Positions 36,001 to 48,000 of a stretch of 64,000 nt of DNA are shown here, piece after piece; positions within the stretch are counted from its first letter, which is position 1; every line of letters begins with the position of its first letter. A program made the position numbers. Source of the stretch: Treponemataceae bacterium (lineage in GTDB: Bacteria; Spirochaetota; Spirochaetia; Treponematales; Rectinemataceae); contig CAXXHO010000003.1 in NCBI GenBank assembly GCA_963667725.2, positions 32,001 to 96,000 on the forward strand, read 5' to 3'.

Positions 36001-39000
36001 CCGCAGTTGAGTTTGGGGTTCGTTCCTATGGCGGCGCCATAGGACCAAAGTCCCTGCACCATAATCGCCGCCTTGCCTTCGGCGAAAGCCGCCTGCTGCT
36101 CGTTCCAGTTCCATTCCTCGGCGTTCTTGTCCATGTTCGCTCGATAGAAGTCGATCACGGAGAAGAGCTTGTCGGTGTCCACGACGCCATAGCTTGTCTT
36201 TCCGGCGTTCATGTCGGCCACGAATTTGGCTGGCGCGATCTTCTTTTCGGCGAGGAGATTGGTATGGACGAGGGTGATGAAGTGTCCCATCGACCAGTTT
36301 TCCTTCAGAAGACCGGCGAAGGGCGTCACATTGTTCGTCCGCAGCGTCCGGGCGATCCTCTCCAGATCGCGGTAGGTGGCGGGAGGCTGGAGCCCGAATT
36401 TCGCGAAAATGTCCTTGTTGTAGATGATGCCGATCCCGGCGAAATCCATCGGCAGACCCCATAGTTTGCCGTTCCAGGTGACCGATGGTTTCGCGCTGTC
36501 GACTACTTTGCCCAGCACAGGCTGTTTGCCAAGGTCAACCAAATAGCCCTTCTCCGCGTATTCGGCGACGCGGGAATAAGATTGCATCTGCAGGATATCG
36601 GGCAGCTTGCCCTGGGCGGCGCGCGCCGACATCGTGGCGTCGGCGTCGTTCGGCACGATCAGCATATCGATCGATATGCCCGGATTTTCCTTCACGAACT
36701 GGGCCACGAGCTTCTTGAGCCCTTCCTGATTTTCCTGTTTATAGTAGTACAGCTCGAGTTTCTGGGCCTGTACCATTCCGGCCAAAGCGAAGAGCACGAG
36801 GAGAAGGGATAGGATTCTCTTCATAAATTCCTCCATGTAAACCGATTTACATAAAGTGTATCATGAAGGCTAAGGTTGTCAAGTGAGAAAAATTAAAGTG
36901 GCGGTTACTGCGCGGTCACCGTAAAGGAGATGGAATCCGAATACTGGCCGGCTGTGTAATCTTGGATGTTCCCTACAGTGATCGACGCCGCGTACTCACG
37001 TGTGCCTGTTCCAGTGGGGCGTTCCATCGATGCGACCGTGTAGGGAGCGCTACTCACCGTGATCGGCGATCCGCCGATAGTAAAAGTGTAGGGGATTGTC
37101 TCGGTGACATTGGCGTTAACATGTTTGAGTTCGCCGCCATGTCCGGTCGGGGAACTCACGCTCAGCGAGTAGCGGAAATTGGATTTTACGCTCACCCTGA
37201 AGCTGCTGGTCGTCGTCGACGCCACATCGTTGAAGACTACCGATGAGATTGTCGTGCTTCCGGATGTGCCTGAAAGGAAGCCAATCGTCGCCGAGGGGGC
37301 CACGACGAATTTGATATAGACCGTCTGCGTATCAACGGGCTGCGTACTAGGATTTCTGTAAGATCTGAAGCGCTCGTTTCGGACTCGGAAGGTGATCGGA
37401 AGTTGATAAGTCCCCGCCGACAGCGAGGAATTGTTCCAGAAGACCGCGTAATACTGGAATGATGTGGTGGAACCGACAGTCGCGGATCCATTTGGAAATG
37501 CGTAGGTATACACATTGCTGCTACCGACGCCGATGTCCGATCCCCACATTTTTATGACATTCCCGCTGGTGGATTGGCTAAAGAAGACTTCAGAGTTGTC
37601 TATATACGTCGAGCTGTCACTACTCGTCCCTATATAAATCCAATCGGAGTTGCGAGGGTAGGGAGAGTCGGCTTTCGGGGAGAGGTCCACGGTGATATTC
37701 GTTACCGTGGAATAGTTTTTAGTCACGGTGATAGTACCCGTGACCCAGGTTGGGGTTCCCGCGTTGTCGTAGATGACGATGGCTGGGCTCTCTGCCGAAA
37801 GCAGAACGGTCTGCGCCCCCGCTGTCCAGGTCGCTGTCGCGATCATCATCGCGATTAGCAAATACTTTTTATATATGGTCATAACAGCTCCTTGCCCGCA
37901 TTTCATACTTAAAATAAGCCCATTCCCCCAAATAGACAATATGCTTGCCCATCGGTTCACCCTCCCGAACCGATGGTCGCGACGACGTCGCCCAATTCAA
38001 GTGTTCCATCGGGCGCATCCGTGAGCGTGAGAACCGTCGTACCAATGGCGTCCGGCCAGAGTATCTTGTACTCGCCTGGAGAAAGTCCGTAGATTTGGAA
38101 ATAGCCGGTATCGTCGGTGAAGGTCTGATCCGAGAACGATCCATCCGATTTCTCGACATCACCCGCCGTGTAGGTAATCGGGTCGCCTGCTTCGTTGACC
38201 AGCCTGCCTGTCACATAGAATCGTTTCTCGAGTCCCGCCTTGAAGAGGAAGCCAGTTCGATACCCCGAGGAAAGGGCGATTTGCGGTATCGTCGCCGATA
38301 CGTCGGCATCGGCTTCCGGGAAGTCCATGGAGGCACGCGCTTGATGATAGGAACTGAGCGGGGATGCCACTGGCGTTCCATAGCTCATGAACTTTGTTCC
38401 CGAATCGACGGCGAAGGCTACCGCCATGCCTTTTGTGGACTTGTCCGGATTGAAGATGATGAAGGAATCATAGATAGGTTTCGAAATCGCGAAAGACCCG
38501 TCAGCGAACGCGAGCGCCGTTGCCAAGCCCAGGTTAACGGTGCCCATCGGAGACGCGAGCTTGGAGCCGTAGCTTATGCCGCTGCCTCCCGAAACTGAGA
38601 AATAGGGCGTACTGAAACCGGAACTGATAGAGATCGAGGATGGGTCGTCCACGCCTCCCGCCAGATTGGTTCCCTGTATCCCAAATCCTATACCCCCGAG
38701 CGGTGGATAGACATCGCTATAGGTAACCGTATTGCCCCCTTCCGCCGACTGAGTCAGCCCGATCTGTCTTCCGGATTTCTGCGGATCCGAGGCGGTGAGG
38801 GAGAACGACGCTGTCAACGCGGGGCTTTTGCCTGTGGCAAATTCCATACCTGAACTGATGCTGAATGACGCGTTCTTGGCGGTGGAGAACCCAAGATTGA
38901 GAGAAGCGACTCCTCTGTCGGCTACGGTGCCCGTCAGCGTACGATTCCATTGGCCCGAGAGCCCAAAGGAGATATTCTTTGAAATTGATCCGCCGATGCT

Positions 39001-45000: not shown

Positions 45001-48000
45001 TGTTCGAGGTTATCGTGACTGAACCTAGGCTTGCCTGGGTCGCGGTAACATCGATCGTCGTGGTGGCGGGCAGGTCGCCGGTTACTCCCACGCTCGCTCC
45101 AACGACGGCGATGATCTGGGTGCTTGAAGTGTTGCCTGCAGAAAATACGGGTGTTGACGCAAGAAGGGCAACAATGGCAAACAGTACAAACTTTTTCATA
45201 ATACCTCTTTTGGGCGGATTGTCGCCCGACTTTTATCTTTATCATATAATATGAACGGATGGAGCGATATGTCAATAGTTCGGATAGTACTTCTTTATGC
45301 TTTTTTCTGAATACTTTGAGCGGCAAGAATGATATATCGAGGAGAAAAACTTCTTGACATGATCGGGGCTGGCAGGATATATCTTCACCGTGTCCTGCCC
45401 GTAAATGGGTAGCTTTAGGGATTTGGGCGGTTAGCTCAGTTGGTTAGAGCACCAGTATGACACGCTGGGGGTCGCAAGTTCGACTCTTGCACCGCCCATA
45501 ATCGTCAAAGGCCGTCAACGATGAAATCGCTGACGGCCTTTTTCTATAATCTACTTTTTGATCAGCACGAATTCCACACGTCGGTTCTTCCACCTGTTCT
45601 CCGCATCTTGGAATTCCACTACGGGTCTGCTCGAGCCAAGGCCGACGACGCTGAGGAGCTTGGCGTCAACGCCGTTCCGCACCAGCATGTCTCGTACCAG
45701 CTCGGCCCTGCCGGCGGACAAGGGAATCAGCTCCCTGCTTTCTTCGATGTTGATTTTCGCCTGCGACAAACCCATAATCTTGGCCGCGCTGTTCGCGTGG
45801 CCTTCAATCCTGATTCTATAGTCCGGGTATTTGTTCAATATCTGGGCAATTCTCGCTACTACTTCCTCGTTCCGCGCGACAATCTCGGGCGATAGGTTGA
45901 GGAAATCCGCGAAGTTAGCCCTGAACACGATCGAGGGAACCTTGATCATGAACCGGCTTCCATCGCGTATCACGAGGACGTCGACCGCGATGACGCCTGA
46001 GATGGTCGTACTATTCCCCAACGCATCATGGGCCACGAATTTGAAAGGATAGTCTGTCGCCGACTCGACAAGAGCGCCGCTGGCCGACTTTCCATCCCAG
46101 GCGATCGTGGCTGGAGGATTTCCCTTGCCGCTCCATTCCGTGAATCGTCGCTCGGTTGCCGCAGTCCTGGGGCTACTCGATTCAACGGTGGCGGTCTCGA
46201 ACACCTTCAGGTTCCAATCGACGATTCCCGCCTCCGCGTCCGCGCCGATGTGGAAGTTCAACGTGTCATCTACCCCATCCCCATCGGGGCTGAAGCGTTG
46301 TACATCGACGCCGACGGTCATAGCGGGCGGAGAGGCGTCGACGAGAACCGACGCGCTGGACGCCTGAGCAAAGTCGCCCTTCGCGTAGAAGACGCTAAGT
46401 TTACCTATAAACTTGCCCCGAACCACCTGACCTTGGAGATCGCGACCGTCCCATACAATTTGCTCGGGCAATTCTGAACCCGTGCCGTCGAAGAAGCGCT
46501 TCTCCGTGCCCTCTTCATCGACAAGGGAGAATCTCCAGGACTCGATTCCTTCCCGCCGCTCGATGCCGATGGAAAAGGACAGCTTGTCGTGTATTCCGTC
46601 GCCGTTGGGTGATATGCCAGTATTGGAGGCGGTCACCTTTACTTTTGGTATTGTTCCGTCCACCGTGATGGCGGGAATATTGGCCGATGAGGTGTTGCCC
46701 GCAATATCAGCAGCTTTCACTTCATAGCTATAGACGCCATCTTCGACGATCGATCCAGCCGAGTCCCTTCCATCCCAGGTGAAGTTTTTGGCTTCGGATT
46801 TCCATGACCAGGACCGAACGATCGCACTCGAGGCATTCCTTATGAGTCCGGTCCAGTCGTCGCCTATGGAGGAATTCTGAGCGATGACTACCGTATCTTT
46901 GTTGCCGTCGCCGTTGGGAGAGAAAAGAATAGGCGAAGCCTCGACCGAGATCCTCGGGGCTTTCGTGTCGAGCATGATCGCTGGGCTGAGGGACGAGAAT
47001 ACTTCGTCGTCGCTGAACCGAACATTCAGCGCGACTTGGTAATCGCCATCCGGGGCGCGGGCGCCATAATCTGTGCTGCCATCCCAAGCATAACTATCGC
47101 TGGTGCTCATCGAGCCCTTCCATGACTTAATAGGGGCGGAGTCGCGATTCCCTGACGCGTCGAGGCCGTAAATGACAACCTCGTATTGCCTAATCACCGG
47201 GATCGCCGGCACATGCGTACGAATATTCATTATATCCCGCATGCCGTCGCCGTTCGGGCTGAACGCCTTCTGGTCTAGGTTGATAAGAATTGCCTTTTTA
47301 GCGATGGCTTTTTCGACAGAAAGCCGCTCGGCCGCCAGACGATTCGCCTCTCTCAATCGGTCCTGGGTATCGGTCAATTGACGTTCGGCCTCGGCTTTTT
47401 CGGCATTCAAGCGCGATATTTCCGCTTCCTTCGAAGCGAGGTTTGCCGCCAATTCCGCGGCTTGCCTGTTCGCTTCCCTGGCGATGGCGGAGGCCCTGTC
47501 CGCTTCAGCCTTTTTTGCCGCGAGCCTCGCTTCGCCGAGAATCCTGAGCGCCGCTTCGGCAACCGAAGATTTGCGTTCGTCCGCAGCCGCTTTCGCTCGC
47601 TCCAGAGCGAGGCCCTCCGAGAATTTCGCCCAGGCAGCGATTCTGTGGGCTTCCGTAAACGCGGAAGCTGAGGCTTTATAATCCGTCGCGGCGTCGGCGA
47701 AATCGCCGTATTCGCGCTTCTGGTCGCCGTCGGCCATCAAGAAAGAGGCGAGCAAGTATTCTTTTTGGGCATTGAATTCCGCCGATGCGGCGTCAGCGGC
47801 CTGTTTTGCGGTCGTGGCTTGTGTTCTCGTCTCCGAAGCGTACTGTTCCGCACCCCAGGCAAGTATATGGCTGCAGTCGCGCGCCGCAATCTTGAGTTTT
47901 TCCGTTCCCGCCCTGATCGAATCATTGGAACCCGAATCATAGAGATCGCGATCCTCGGCTCTAAGCCTTTCGGCCTCCGCCGCGTGGAAGGGAGAATAAT

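Follow-up and report, generated by a model that had tools for sequence, protein, structure and literature searches.

Csu pili of Acinetobacter baumannii, an archaic (sigma) chaperone-usher (CU) system with donor-strand assembly, combine several small subunits, a chaperone and an usher with a two-domain tip protein. The csu gene order is small subunits, chaperone, usher and, last, the tip protein. One study names the components as CsuA/B, CsuA, CsuB, the chaperone CsuC, the usher CsuD and the tip adhesin CsuE (PMC4654587). CFA/I, the other class 5 fimbriae and the ECP of Escherichia coli belong to the alternative class, and type 1 and P pili, with the ushers FimD and PapC, to the classical class. 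ECP also has two chaperones, and classical pilins carry a conserved disulfide. In the full text of open-access papers and bioRxiv we found no description of chaperone-usher pili in Spirochaetota, in line with the genome-wide survey's note; the operon reported here places this well-known adhesive-fibre machine in a non-motile spirochaete that lacks genes for flagella or type IV pili.

We analyzed a window of 64,000 nucleotides (contig positions 32001-96000) from this genome, and all positions below are window coordinates, the interval 36905-45199 included, from which no offset is to be subtracted. As the survey's note had described, nine co-directional minus-strand open reading frames, all intact, occupy this interval, and the translated products all begin with a basic and then hydrophobic, signal-like N terminus. 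Transcription would start at the pilin-like subunit p194 (44741..45199, 152 amino acids [aa]) and proceed through p193 (44153..44656, 167 aa), p192 (43415..43987, 190 aa), chaperone B (42511..43257, 248 aa), p190 (41899..42438, 179 aa), p189 (41187..41726, 179 aa) and chaperone A (40415..41167, 250 aa), the 3' end of which overlaps the start of the usher gene (37957..40431, 824 aa), to g186 (36905..37882, 325 aa counted from the second Met). The arrangement is that of Csu, with a two-domain protein last, but this operon, found in a spirochaete, has two genes for chaperones and five for small subunits, and its sequence similarity to Csu is marginal for the chaperone and absent for the pilins. 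No NCBIfam profile matched any operon protein above a cut-off, and the usher, pilins and g186 of this genome fell below every curated cut-off of Pfam and NCBIfam. From gene content, folds, signature residues, conservation, synteny and RNA-labelled contigs over the operon, all obtained by computation, we conclude that this is very probably a functional CU pilus operon of non-classical, archaic-like type. The archaic-type system is real, and from the genes and models we infer the fibre itself.

The Pfam Usher family (PF00577), whose cut-off the survey's note had reported the 824-aa protein to miss, did not match it even at an E value of ≤1. The sole Pfam match was to CarboxypepD_reg at residues 740-790 (26.1 bits; cut-off, 32.3). 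In the AF2 model (pLDDT 80.8), an N-terminal domain (about residues 49-143) is followed by barrel strands 1-6 (residues 161-257), a plug (about residues 272-340), barrel strands 7-24 (residues 350-643) and two C-terminal beta-sandwich domains (about residues 646-735 and 738-817), with the 24 strands and the position of the plug between strands 6 and 7 read from DSSP. Foldseek returned FimD (3rfz_B) as the best match (E value 8.1e-34, TM 0.57/0.60, 847 columns, 14% identity), PapC (7lhg_C) had an E value of 3.3e-30, and all top matches were FimD or PapC. The protein is therefore predicted to fold as a full usher, FimD/PapC-like over its whole length, which supplies the usher model that the survey's note had named as a gap. 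Among 22 aligned members of its family, 18 matched Pfam Usher (E≤0.01). The 42 homologues, 29 with PF00577, counted earlier become 43 and 30 (precomputed matches), at 24-100% identity, and NCBI names two of them, both in Rectinemataceae MAGs, "fimbria/pilus outer membrane usher protein." The operon shares with type 1 and P pili the usher architecture and PapD_N, but differs in that the usher identity is about 14%, that neither Pfam Usher nor PapD_C is matched, that the chaperone arginine is non-classical and that the mature proteins, in all nine cases, contain no cysteine. Because usher, pilin and chaperone family profiles retrieved no significant member of these three protein types from PDB sequences, the case rests on predicted structures.

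Among the small subunits, p190 is a paralogue of p189 (52% identity, E value 8e-67). The A2 pilin profile matched p192 over its full length (E value 2.8e-21), making it a member of the p189 family, and also p194 (4.3e-8), which phmmer linked to p193 (2e-15 to 4e-16); the p193 type is the sole small-subunit match in two simpler loci (L032 and L037, genomes G033 and G278). These similarities place the five small proteins in one divergent pilin superfamily, and they tie to p189 the subunits that the survey's note had left aside. That note's reading of five family-less pilins is thus upheld as to pilins, by fold for p189 and by sequence for the others, whereas family-less holds by curated cut-offs only. 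The best Pfam E value for the five and g186 was 0.04, and no protein of this genome reached the curated cut-off of SCPU (spore coat protein U); nevertheless, the pilins adjoin SCPU/DUF4402, subunit families linked to archaic systems.

The AF2 model of p189, the candidate major subunit, had a pLDDT of 89.5. All seven PDB matches at an E value of ≤1e-3 were CU subunits (CfaB in five chains, CsuE and CupE), led by CfaB (E value 1.1e-4, TM about 0.5), and CsuA/B came next in the list (1.0e-3). Caf1 subunits also appeared. The fold matches are modest, with E values of about 1e-4 and TM of 0.4-0.54. Three copies of mature p189 were predicted as a complex with ipSAE values of 0.62, 0.74 and 0.68 (median 0.68; best of three controls, 0.00). 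For calibration, 20 of 30 proteins solved as one-chain pairs attain this mark, as does 1 of 23 whose structures are single chains, figures that hold only roughly for three copies run with our own alignment; a pass may also mirror likeness to solved donor-strand complexes and not binding. At least 85% of contacts were shared between runs, and partner pLDDT was at least 86. The contact joins residues 21-38 of one copy to residues 37-52 and 162-178 of the next, in pairings from 28-173 through 35-165 that run antiparallel to the last strand. These models predict a chaperone-usher pilin fold for p189 and its self-assembly through the N-terminal strand by donor-strand exchange, as in Csu. The groove occupied in the trimer is the one that the survey's note had given for the chaperone strand.

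The product of the gene after the usher had been described as a secreted protein. It is more than that, since positions 203-325 of the g186-family profile match the bodies of the small pilins (iE 5e-10 to 2e-3), so that a C-terminal pilin domain stands after an N-terminal domain some 200 aa long. Of 12 related loci, 9 have a homologue of 305-347 aa after the usher. Because of the pilin domain, g186 looks like a two-domain tip adhesin and is our candidate for that role.

Both chaperones matched PapD_N at 34.1 bits (cut-off, 23), in agreement with the survey's note, Pfam detected PapD_C in neither, and no other gene of the genome carries PapD_N. Residues P90 and R120 are invariant and spaced 30 residues apart, the spacing of Pro59/Arg89 in CsuC, to which they correspond by motif through an alignment of a Leptolyngbya relative with CsuC and a marginal alignment with EcpB. 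By this comparison both chaperones have the Pro and Arg that mark non-classical chaperones, CsuC among them. The segments from the mature chaperone to the stop codon form a perfect direct repeat of 681 nucleotides (nt) (chaperone A, 40416..41096; chaperone B, 42512..43192) with unrelated flanks. Mature chaperones A and B are hence identical, whereas the chaperone pairs of three related genomes share 66-74% identity.

Unannotated CU clusters resembling the operon lie on plasmids of Novosphingobium (NC_015579.1), Vibrio alginolyticus (NZ_CP046807.1) and Leptolyngbya (NZ_CP046158.1). In the first two the order is as here, with two small proteins followed by one or two chaperones, then an usher and a protein of ~300 aa; the Leptolyngbya record matches this gene set as far as the usher and lists nothing beyond. 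Against the spirochaete family profiles, the ushers gave E values of 2.6e-183 to 5.2e-94, the best chaperone of each record 7e-61 to 3e-32 (1.1e-11 for the other Vibrio chaperone) and the two proteins encoded after an usher 2e-16 and 1.1e-12; two of the three clusters share the CarboxypepD_reg-like C-terminal usher domain. They differ in phylum, in being plasmid-borne and in sequence (25-31% tblastn identity), and the records label their small subunits "hypothetical."

These clusters bear on the class of the system. The pathway could lie outside the archaic class, as a separate deep lineage that is the sister of the archaic and alternative classes and has a subunit family of its own. CfaB, the top fold match of p189, is of the alternative class, as is EcpB, the best PDB match of the chaperone family profile (E value 0.16, against 0.5 for CsuC, both marginal), although neither CFA/I and class 5 fimbriae nor ECP shows significant sequence similarity to the operon. 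Also consistent with a separate branch, the SCPU cut-off, unreached in this genome, was reached in just 1 of 94 distant representatives scanned, and the nearest Atlas clusters of p189 have no Pfam family in common. On the other side, subunits of the out-of-phylum relatives score just below that cut-off (21.6, 18.6 and 16.4 bits against 22.4), the nearest Atlas clusters of g186 are 39-60% SCPU, and CsuC is the best PDB match of the Leptolyngbya chaperone. Moreover, relatives with the same gene order occur in Alphaproteobacteria and a cyanobacterium, groups in which a published account places only archaic systems (PMC4654587). We regard a separate branch as rather unlikely, though a serious contender.

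For the archaic-like pilus that we favor, we infer the following path. Sec would export all nine products, and a PapD-like chaperone would cap each periplasmic subunit by inserting its G1 strand (residues about 138-150) into the open groove. The chaperone-subunit complexes would dock at the 24-stranded outer-membrane usher, where the N-terminal strand of the incoming subunit (about residues 28-35 in p189) would displace the chaperone strand and run antiparallel to the preceding subunit's C-terminal strand, and the growing fibre would be threaded outward. With an extra N-terminal domain and without a donor strand of its own, g186 would enter first and become the tip adhesin; p189 would form the bulk of the stalk, and p190, p192, p193 and p194 would serve as minor subunits, as adaptors or as alternative stalk subunits. 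The fibre would probably attach this bacterium, which has neither flagella nor type IV pili, to surfaces, biofilm or partner cells.

The same machinery could also yield a thin amorphous coat or capsule-like polymer and not a discrete pilus. Caf1 forms the F1 capsule, and an archaic CU system deposits the spore coat protein U of Myxococcus; the operon subunits border on the SCPU family, Caf1 is among the fold matches of p189, and the present evidence fits a coat as well as a rod. However, the conserved two-domain protein after the usher is as expected for the tip adhesin of a discrete fibre, the several distinct subunit types suggest an ordered one, and the closest p189 folds (CfaB, Csu, CupE) are those of true-pilus subunits. 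A coat is, in our judgment, improbable.

The genome spans 4.22 Mb in 8 contigs and is an estimated 97.0% complete with 6.3% contamination. Flagellin_N, FHIPEP, MCPsignal and Secretin had no matches in it (E≤0.01), and no T2SSE match exceeded the cut-off (best, 18.9 bits against 24.9), which bears out the reported absence of flagellar, chemotaxis and type II/IV genes; the description of the pilus as the only predicted surface filament covers flagella, type IV/type II ATPases and secretins. The usher family occurs in 37 of 69 genomes of the bacterial family and 14 of its 21 genera, in 31 of 40 flagellin-less against 6 of 29 flagellin-bearing genomes. The system is commoner than PapD_N suggests, because 36 of the 68 other genomes have the usher family. 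In several genera the operon lies between an ABC-transporter binding-protein gene and tRNA-Val, here tRNA-Val(GAC) (45424..45499, plus strand), its upstream boundary; of 6 related loci scanned, 4 have this tRNA next to the operon and a fifth has it about 1.6 kb away. The locus grew from a four-gene core. A silent relic, recent foreign island or mis-binned contig, uninformative on spirochaete biology, might be suspected from the G+C content (0.49-0.55, against 0.59-0.66 in the left half of the window), the adjoining tRNA gene and the contamination estimate, but is highly improbable given nine intact frames, RNA-labelled contigs, the recurrence of the site and its flanking genes in no fewer than three other genera (a synteny across genera that argues against a foreign contig), the spread of the usher family over genera and a megabase-sized contig (feature at contig position 1533859).

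Four RNA-labelled runs, belonging to three studies, yielded contigs that overlie the operon, and in three of these runs the deepest contigs lie on p189. In run X6, an amplified sample whose RNA nature is only guessed, the p189 contig reached a depth of 7636, compared with 3.6-14.2 for the others listed; in X21 the p189 depths were 180 and 108 and the others at most 5.6, and in X22 the values were 36 and 6.5. These are contig depths, by which genes cannot be ranked. The nine-gene operon thus is intact and apparently expressed. Sigma-70-like promoters, each matching the consensus at 11 of 12 positions, lie on the minus strand upstream of p194 (45246..45275, a consensus match only), in the p193-p192 gap (44078..44106) and in the p190-p189 gap (41820..41848). 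A terminator-like hairpin of 12 pairs with a T-rich run (41078..41105, minus strand) lies about 80 nt past the p189 stop codon, within the stretch that encodes the signal peptide of chaperone A; one RNA contig ends at 41108, a hint that the hairpin is possibly an attenuator.

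The operon consists of nine consecutive open reading frames on the minus strand, from position 36905 to position 45199. In order of transcription, they encode the small secreted proteins p194 (152 aa), p193 (167 aa) and p192 (190 aa), chaperone B (248 aa), the further small proteins p190 and p189 (179 aa each), chaperone A (250 aa), an 824-aa protein, and the 325-aa protein g186. Read from the translations, all nine N termini pass from a basic through a hydrophobic stretch to a small-residue site. Pfam PapD_N scored 34.1 bits in chaperones A and B (cut-off, 23), and the families of classical chaperone-usher (CU) systems, Usher, PapD_C, and Fimbrial, were absent at an E value of ≤1 across the operon proteins. 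The 824-aa protein had a single Pfam match, to CarboxypepD_reg over residues 740 to 790 and below threshold; nothing meaningful was found in Pfam for the six other proteins (the five small ones and g186), and an NCBIfam scan of the operon proteins made no addition. The nine-gene description in the genome-wide survey's note, with its signal-like N termini, its PapD_N pair, and an 824-aa protein that escapes the Usher model, was therefore accurate. When the same coordinates were read as contig positions (window positions 4905 to 13199), the genes found there were unrelated and on the plus strand. Classical CU subunits and chaperones depend on disulfides; here, all nine mature proteins (2,514 residues) are free of cysteine, and the only two cysteines sit in the signal peptide of p190.

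The note had read the 824-aa protein as an usher, most of whose homologues carry Pfam Usher, some of them being named usher by annotation pipelines. We recovered 43 homologues from a collection of 5.8 billion proteins, with precomputed PF00577 in 30 of the 43 and the name usher given by NCBI in two and by JGI in five. Twenty-two of the 43 were taken into an alignment, and 18 of the 22 aligned family members matched Pfam Usher at an E value of ≤0.01 when scanned singly; the window's own protein had no match. By sequence, the family profile matched no usher in the PDB, and only its last domain was matched (NOMO and SdrD). In PapC and FimD, a plug interrupts the 24-strand barrel after strand 6 and before strand 7. 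An AlphaFold2 model built on the alignment (mean pLDDT, 80.8; pTM, 0.59) was assigned by DSSP an N-terminal alpha/beta domain (residues ~49 to 143), long barrel strands 1 to 6 (161 to 257), a plug formed by a beta domain of lower confidence (~272 to 340), eighteen further long strands, 7 to 24 (350 to 643), and two C-terminal beta-sandwich domains (~646 to 735 and 738 to 817). In a Foldseek search of the PDB with this model, the first 17 rows listed (ranks 1 to 19) were all FimD or PapC, the best being FimD 3rfz_B (E = 8.1e-34; TM, 0.57/0.60; 847 columns; 14% identity), with PapC 7lhg_C at an E value of 3.3e-30; generic porins appeared only from an E value of about 1e-7 onward. On account of the plugged 24-strand model and the full-length fold matches to FimD and PapC, the 824-aa protein is established as an usher at the level of a confident model. 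The usher orthologue of one related genome (G020; locus L013, C64:2765-5242) contains one in-frame TGA, which may represent a pseudogene, a sequencing error, or recoding.

Seventeen chaperones from the window and eleven related loci were aligned, and P90 and R120 (chaperone A numbering), 30 residues apart, were invariant in all 17. The excerpted text of PMC4654587 gives Pro59 (strand D1) as the sole invariant residue across the whole CU chaperone superfamily and confines Arg89 (strand F of domain 1 in CsuC and EcpB), which holds the C-terminal carboxylate of the subunit, to archaic and alternative chaperones; in CsuC, the domain 2 partners of this anchor are Tyr196 and Arg174. The chaperone family profile produced only marginal matches in the PDB (EcpB, E = 0.16; CsuC, E = 0.5), with no classical chaperone among them, and R120 falls on an arginine of EcpB in that marginal alignment. 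A cyanobacterial chaperone from Leptolyngbya matched the family profile at an E value of 7e-61 and had CsuC as its best PDB match (E = 0.037); counted from the printed alignment, its proline and arginine align to CsuC residues 59/60 and 89. Furthermore, R120 lies within a short acidic-aromatic-Arg-aliphatic motif common to the window chaperones and to CsuC around Arg89. The invariant P90 and R120, their 30-residue spacing, and the CsuC-like motif indicate, at the level of sequence, that the window chaperones carry a non-classical signature; because the arginine is common to the archaic and alternative classes, this signature does not separate the two.

The chaperone genes share a perfect direct repeat of 681 nt (40416 to 41096 and 42512 to 43192, 100% identical), which extends in each gene from about codon 24 through the stop codon, that is, over the mature part, between unrelated flanks. 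Chaperone pairs at equivalent positions in three related genomes, one of the same genus as the window, are 66%, 74%, and 70% identical, and the pilin genes beside the repeat, p189 and p190, are only 52% identical. Since the orthologous pairs are only 66 to 74% identical, the best reading is that a recent gene conversion made both mature chaperones identical. The repeat is possibly an artefact of assembly or polishing; the source assembly comprises only 8 contigs. If the repeat is real, a single mature chaperone sequence serves all six subunits. Contigs of other strains from RNA-labelled runs depart from the sequence of the window at the upstream edge of the repeat, with loose ends at 43187 and 43191.

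The five small proteins had been proposed to be pilins, and this reading gained support from sequence, which ties all five together, and from the modelled fold of p189, which is that of a CU pilin. p189 and p190 are 52% identical. A profile of 21 p189 homologues (the two window proteins and 19 of the 26 homologues found), run on a nine-sequence database, matched p192 (E = 2.8e-21), p194 (E = 4.3e-8), p193 (E = 0.0016), and g186 (E = 0.0049), and p193 and p194 matched each other at E values of 2e-15 to 4e-16. The profile matches to p192, p193, and p194, with the mutual match of the last two, place all five in one superfamily. No Pfam domain is recorded for any of the 26 homologues, and one is named 'spore coat protein U-like' by JGI; among 1.84 billion representatives, the p189 profile found only 127 proteins at an E value of ≤1e-3. 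The model of p189 (pLDDT, 89.5) had seven fold matches in the PDB at an E value of ≤1e-3, namely, CfaB (five chains), CsuE, and CupE, with CfaB the best (E = 1.1e-4) and CsuA/B next after them (1.0e-3). The remainder of the list was mostly subunits of Pap, Fim, Caf1, and Saf at TM scores of 0.4 to 0.54, and the listed ranks included the non-CU entries TLP-1a/b, TasA, and TTHA1873. By sequence, the pilin profile had no PDB match at an E value of ≤10.

Self-assembly was predicted with three copies of mature p189 (residues 21 to 179) and its own alignment. The three runs gave ipSAE values of 0.62, 0.74, and 0.68 (median, 0.68) against 0.00 for the best of 3 controls, with at least 85% agreement in contacts and a partner pLDDT of at least 86. 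Among proteins solved as same-chain pairs, 20 of 30 reach this ipSAE mark, and among those solved as single chains, 1 of 23 does; the calibration is only rough for this trimer because three copies and an own alignment were used; as similar complexes have already been solved, the pass shows likeness to them and is not proof of binding. In the predicted trimer, residues 21 to 38 of one copy touch residues 37 to 52 and 162 to 178 of the next, the tightest pairs being 28 with 171 to 173, 29 with 171 and 173, 31 with 169 to 171, 33 with 167 to 169, and 35 with 165 and 168. The donor segment and the C-terminal strand are antiparallel, and I29, V31, A33, and V35 point toward the groove, which is the groove that the note had given for the chaperone strand in its predicted chaperone-p189 complex. 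Such antiparallel strand insertion is the donor-strand exchange geometry of classical systems. In these models, the Ig-like fold of p189 lacks a strand that a donor segment supplies, self-assembly by donor-strand exchange is predicted, and the assembly mechanism as a whole would be the standard one.

A g186 homologue of 305 to 347 aa directly follows the usher in 9 of 12 related loci. Positions 203 to 325 of a profile built from g186 and five homologues downstream of ushers matched small-pilin bodies in five loci, one of them that of the window (independent E values of 5.4e-10, 6.8e-7, 3.2e-6, 1.6e-5, and 1.9e-5, and 0.0018 for p190 of the window), and the profile also matched pilins of the plasmid relatives described below. 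From these matches, g186 is predicted to be an N-terminal domain of ~200 aa joined to a C-terminal pilin domain. The tip adhesins CsuE, FimH, and CfaE have the same two-domain layout. The Atlas clusters nearest to g186 (scores of 0.97, 0.96, and 0.96), which we treat as a lead only, are 39 to 60% spore coat protein U family (SCPU), and the top cluster is commonest in Spirochaetota. In G009, a related genome, three tandem g186-like genes of 317 to 348 aa follow the usher (locus L028, C10, 4712 to 8049), where the window has one; this suggests diversification of the putative adhesin.

Outside the phylum, a tblastn search of plasmids returned nine records, from Sphingomonadales and other Alphaproteobacteria, Vibrio, Photobacterium, and a Leptolyngbya. 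Among three of these records that were examined, the Novosphingobium and Vibrio plasmids have the gene order of the operon through a ~300-aa protein after the usher, and the Leptolyngbya record has the equivalent genes as far as the usher; the small proteins are labelled 'hypothetical' in all three. Ushers, chaperones, and two post-usher proteins of the plasmids matched the spirochaete family profiles, and subunits of these relatives scored 21.6, 18.6, and 16.4 bits against SCPU, just below the cut-off (22.4). SCPU (PF05229) was not found at an E value of ≤1 in the operon proteins or at an E value of ≤10 in the six-frame genome. Among 21 close homologues of p189, three matched SCPU at an E value of ≤1 (best E, 0.0074). 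We scanned 94 of the 127 distant representatives (left out were three already aligned, partial or multi-stretch matches, and fragments); two matched SCPU (23.3 and 21.7 bits; cut-off, 22.4) and one matched DUF4402 (18.4 bits; cut-off, 25.2). The Atlas clusters nearest to p189 have no common Pfam family, one being auto-named DUF4402 and the cluster at rank 23 being 14% SCPU. That the pilins belong to no family thus holds, by curated cut-offs, for the operon's own pilins, which have no meaningful match in Pfam or NCBIfam, and has to be qualified for their relatives, which border on SCPU and DUF4402.

The founding classification of CU systems is reportedly that of Nuccio and Baumler. The operon is probably of the archaic type, a class that is defined by usher phylogeny and is assigned here from indirect features: the taxa of the nearest out-of-phylum relatives, the chaperone signature, and the Csu-like gene order favour it. 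In the excerpted text of PMC4654587, archaic CU systems are listed only in Proteobacteria (Alpha- and Deltaproteobacteria among them), Cyanobacteria, and Deinococcus-Thermus, and PMC9452303 describes an ultrathin zigzag rod with clinch contacts as a feature of archaic pili. The operon has the non-classical chaperone arginine of the archaic class, but its proteins lack the SCPU subunit match. As regards the alternative (alpha) class, the best fold match of p189 is CfaB (E = 1.1e-4) and the best marginal chaperone match is EcpB (E = 0.16); neither is significant by sequence. The classical class (type 1, P, and F1) is at odds with operon proteins that match none of its Usher, PapD_C, and Fimbrial families. 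We conclude that the CU operon is real, intact, conserved, and of a non-classical, archaic-like type, and that the fibre itself is predicted.

Downstream of the operon lies an ABC-transporter binding-protein gene, and tRNA-Val(GAC) bounds it on the upstream side. Matching permease and binding-protein genes flank the operon in loci of three related genomes (G050, G009, and G033), and tRNA-Val adjoins it in four of six loci scanned and lies ~1.6 kb off in a fifth; no tRNA-Val was found in the remaining locus. Because these flanks are conserved, the dip in G+C content at the operon is not a sign of recent arrival. In gene maps of distant relatives, among them a genome from the same order and another from the same class, a core form comprises small subunit(s), a chaperone, an usher, and a g186-like protein. 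The expanded form, seen in the window, G009, G061, and G050, runs from p194/p193/p192-type genes through a chaperone, one or more p189-type genes, a second chaperone, and the usher to one to three g186-like genes. The operon seems to have expanded at this site through duplication. Beyond tRNA-Val, a 1,054-aa protein with FlgD_ig, CHU_C, and C-terminal OmpA domains is encoded at 45551 to 48715 (minus strand), between tRNA-Val and tRNA-Phe; G050 carries this gene too, and because the two tRNAs are adjacent in G033, it looks inserted in the genus of the window.

Three sigma-70-like sites, each with 11 of 12 matches to the consensus and identified by such matches only, precede p194, p192, and p189 in the intergenic gaps of the coding strand. 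Parts of the stretch are contained in 22 public sequencing runs from 12 studies, and we compared the Logan contigs of four RNA-labelled runs (X6, X19, X21, and X22; three studies) over the operon. Run X6, an amplified run whose RNA status is only a guess, had contigs 99 to 100% identical over g186, the usher, p190, chaperone B, p193, and p194 at depths of 3.6 to 14.2, and a 415-nt contig identical to p189 at a depth of 7,636. In X21, the p189 contigs (6 to 24 differences) had depths of 180 and 108, versus ≤5.6 for the other listed contigs; in X22, a 670-nt contig with 5 differences had a depth of 36.4, versus 6.5; and in X19, once 37 nt belonging to an unrelated contig are set aside, depths were similar (2 to 5). 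Genes cannot be ranked by contig depth, the runs were found via the gene that they cover, and contig gaps over chaperone A and most of the usher in RNA-labelled runs are no evidence of silence. Given these caveats, the status of X6, and a comparison made within the operon, the depths are suggestive of an operon transcribed in nature with p189 as its major subunit. The X19, X21, and X22 contigs all end at 41770 to 41773, ~40 nt downstream of the start predicted for the promoter at 41820 to 41848; the loose end of X21 there resembles a sequencing adapter. A terminator-like hairpin (41078 to 41105) lies within the signal-peptide codons of chaperone A and hints at an explanation for a short, abundant p189 transcript; together with a G+C-rich hairpin in the p189 leader (41745 to 41759), just before the ribosome-binding site, it may shape a short, stable transcript.

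The genome, which is 97% complete, was searched with marker profiles, and the absence of flagellar, chemotaxis, type IV pilus, and type II secretion genes reported in the note was borne out: Flagellin_N, FHIPEP, MCPsignal, and Secretin had no match at an E value of ≤0.01, the T2SSE ATPase had none over its cut-off, and both PapD_N matches fell within the operon. Among the flagellar, chemotaxis, and type IV/type II markers checked, the operon is the sole predicted filament system. Within the family Rectinemataceae, the usher profile matched 37 of 69 genomes (this one included) and 14 of 21 genera. Flagellin_N was present in 29 of the 69. An usher was found in 31 of 40 genomes without flagellin, whereas only 6 of 29 with flagellin had one; by genus, the counts were 11 of 13 and 3 of 8. 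These counts are a description and not a test, because relatives are not independent and many of the genomes are incomplete. Usher divergence is greatest in the six carriers with flagellin (E = 1e-85 to 1e-118). Of 400 other Spirochaetota genomes, sampled evenly, two had near-full-length usher matches. Six further matches were restricted to usher positions 737 to 804 and were left uncounted, since the CarboxypepD_reg-like domain there is widespread and does not mark an usher. A single-peptide-pattern search of genome contigs found seven close relatives, named Rectinemataceae, Rectinema sp., Treponemataceae, or Spirochaetaceae bacterium, and no distant taxa. One of the seven, an usher fragment of 63% identity in a 'Candidatus Shapirobacteria' bin (L045; JBAZWK010000118.1, 2,705 nt), on a short contig of low coverage, is probably a binning error and not an usher of that lineage.

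No report of a CU system in a spirochaete was found in open-access PubMed Central and bioRxiv full text, in agreement with the note's statement that such pili are undescribed in Spirochaetota, and no paper there combined 'spore coat protein U' with 'Spirochaet'. The words pili, fimbria, and usher do not occur in the main text of the Rectinema cohabitans genome and proteome study (PMC6052044) or of a comparative preprint (PMC12236494). Within the literature searched, the operon is therefore unreported in print for the phylum, and it is half-recognised by annotation pipelines in related metagenome-assembled genomes. 

A further reading, possible but less likely than not, is that an archaic-type CU fibre has become the main surface organelle of flagellum-less lineages of the family; that growth at one site turned a four-gene core into an operon with two modules and two chaperones; that the p189 transcript ranks with the most abundant ones of groundwater and sludge communities; and that the fibre tethers these non-motile cells to biofilm, necromass, or bacterial partners. 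In textbooks, periplasmic flagella are the defining character of spirochaetes, and we know of no description of an external pilus for them. If this reading is true, Spirochaetota would have their first demonstrated pilus of any kind, and loss of the periplasmic flagellum would be paired with the retention and elaboration of an adhesive fibre outside the cell. An intact, conserved, and apparently transcribed CU operon among non-motile spirochaetes extends the range over which the pathway is known and is a concrete candidate for the attachment of rod-shaped immotile cells in groundwater, biofilm, and sludge. Because curated models miss the subunit family, similar systems are probably under-counted in genome surveys. 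The interest of the system lies in its host lineage, the link to flagellar loss, the family-less subunits, the homogenised chaperones, and the signs of high p189 expression. It is also free of cysteine, and the literature describes relatives of its host as anaerobes; both this feature and the naturally identical chaperone pair could be useful for asking what sets chaperone-subunit specificity.

Another family within the same class was represented in the 400-genome sample by three genomes (G445, G442, and G439; loci L021, L022, and L023), all of which gave partial usher matches within much longer open frames of 1,099 to 1,250 aa. The frames matched the usher profile at E values of 4e-16 to 1e-10, and the portions within these loci had no Pfam match at an E value of ≤0.001. 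They may represent a second, larger usher-like family in spirochaetes.
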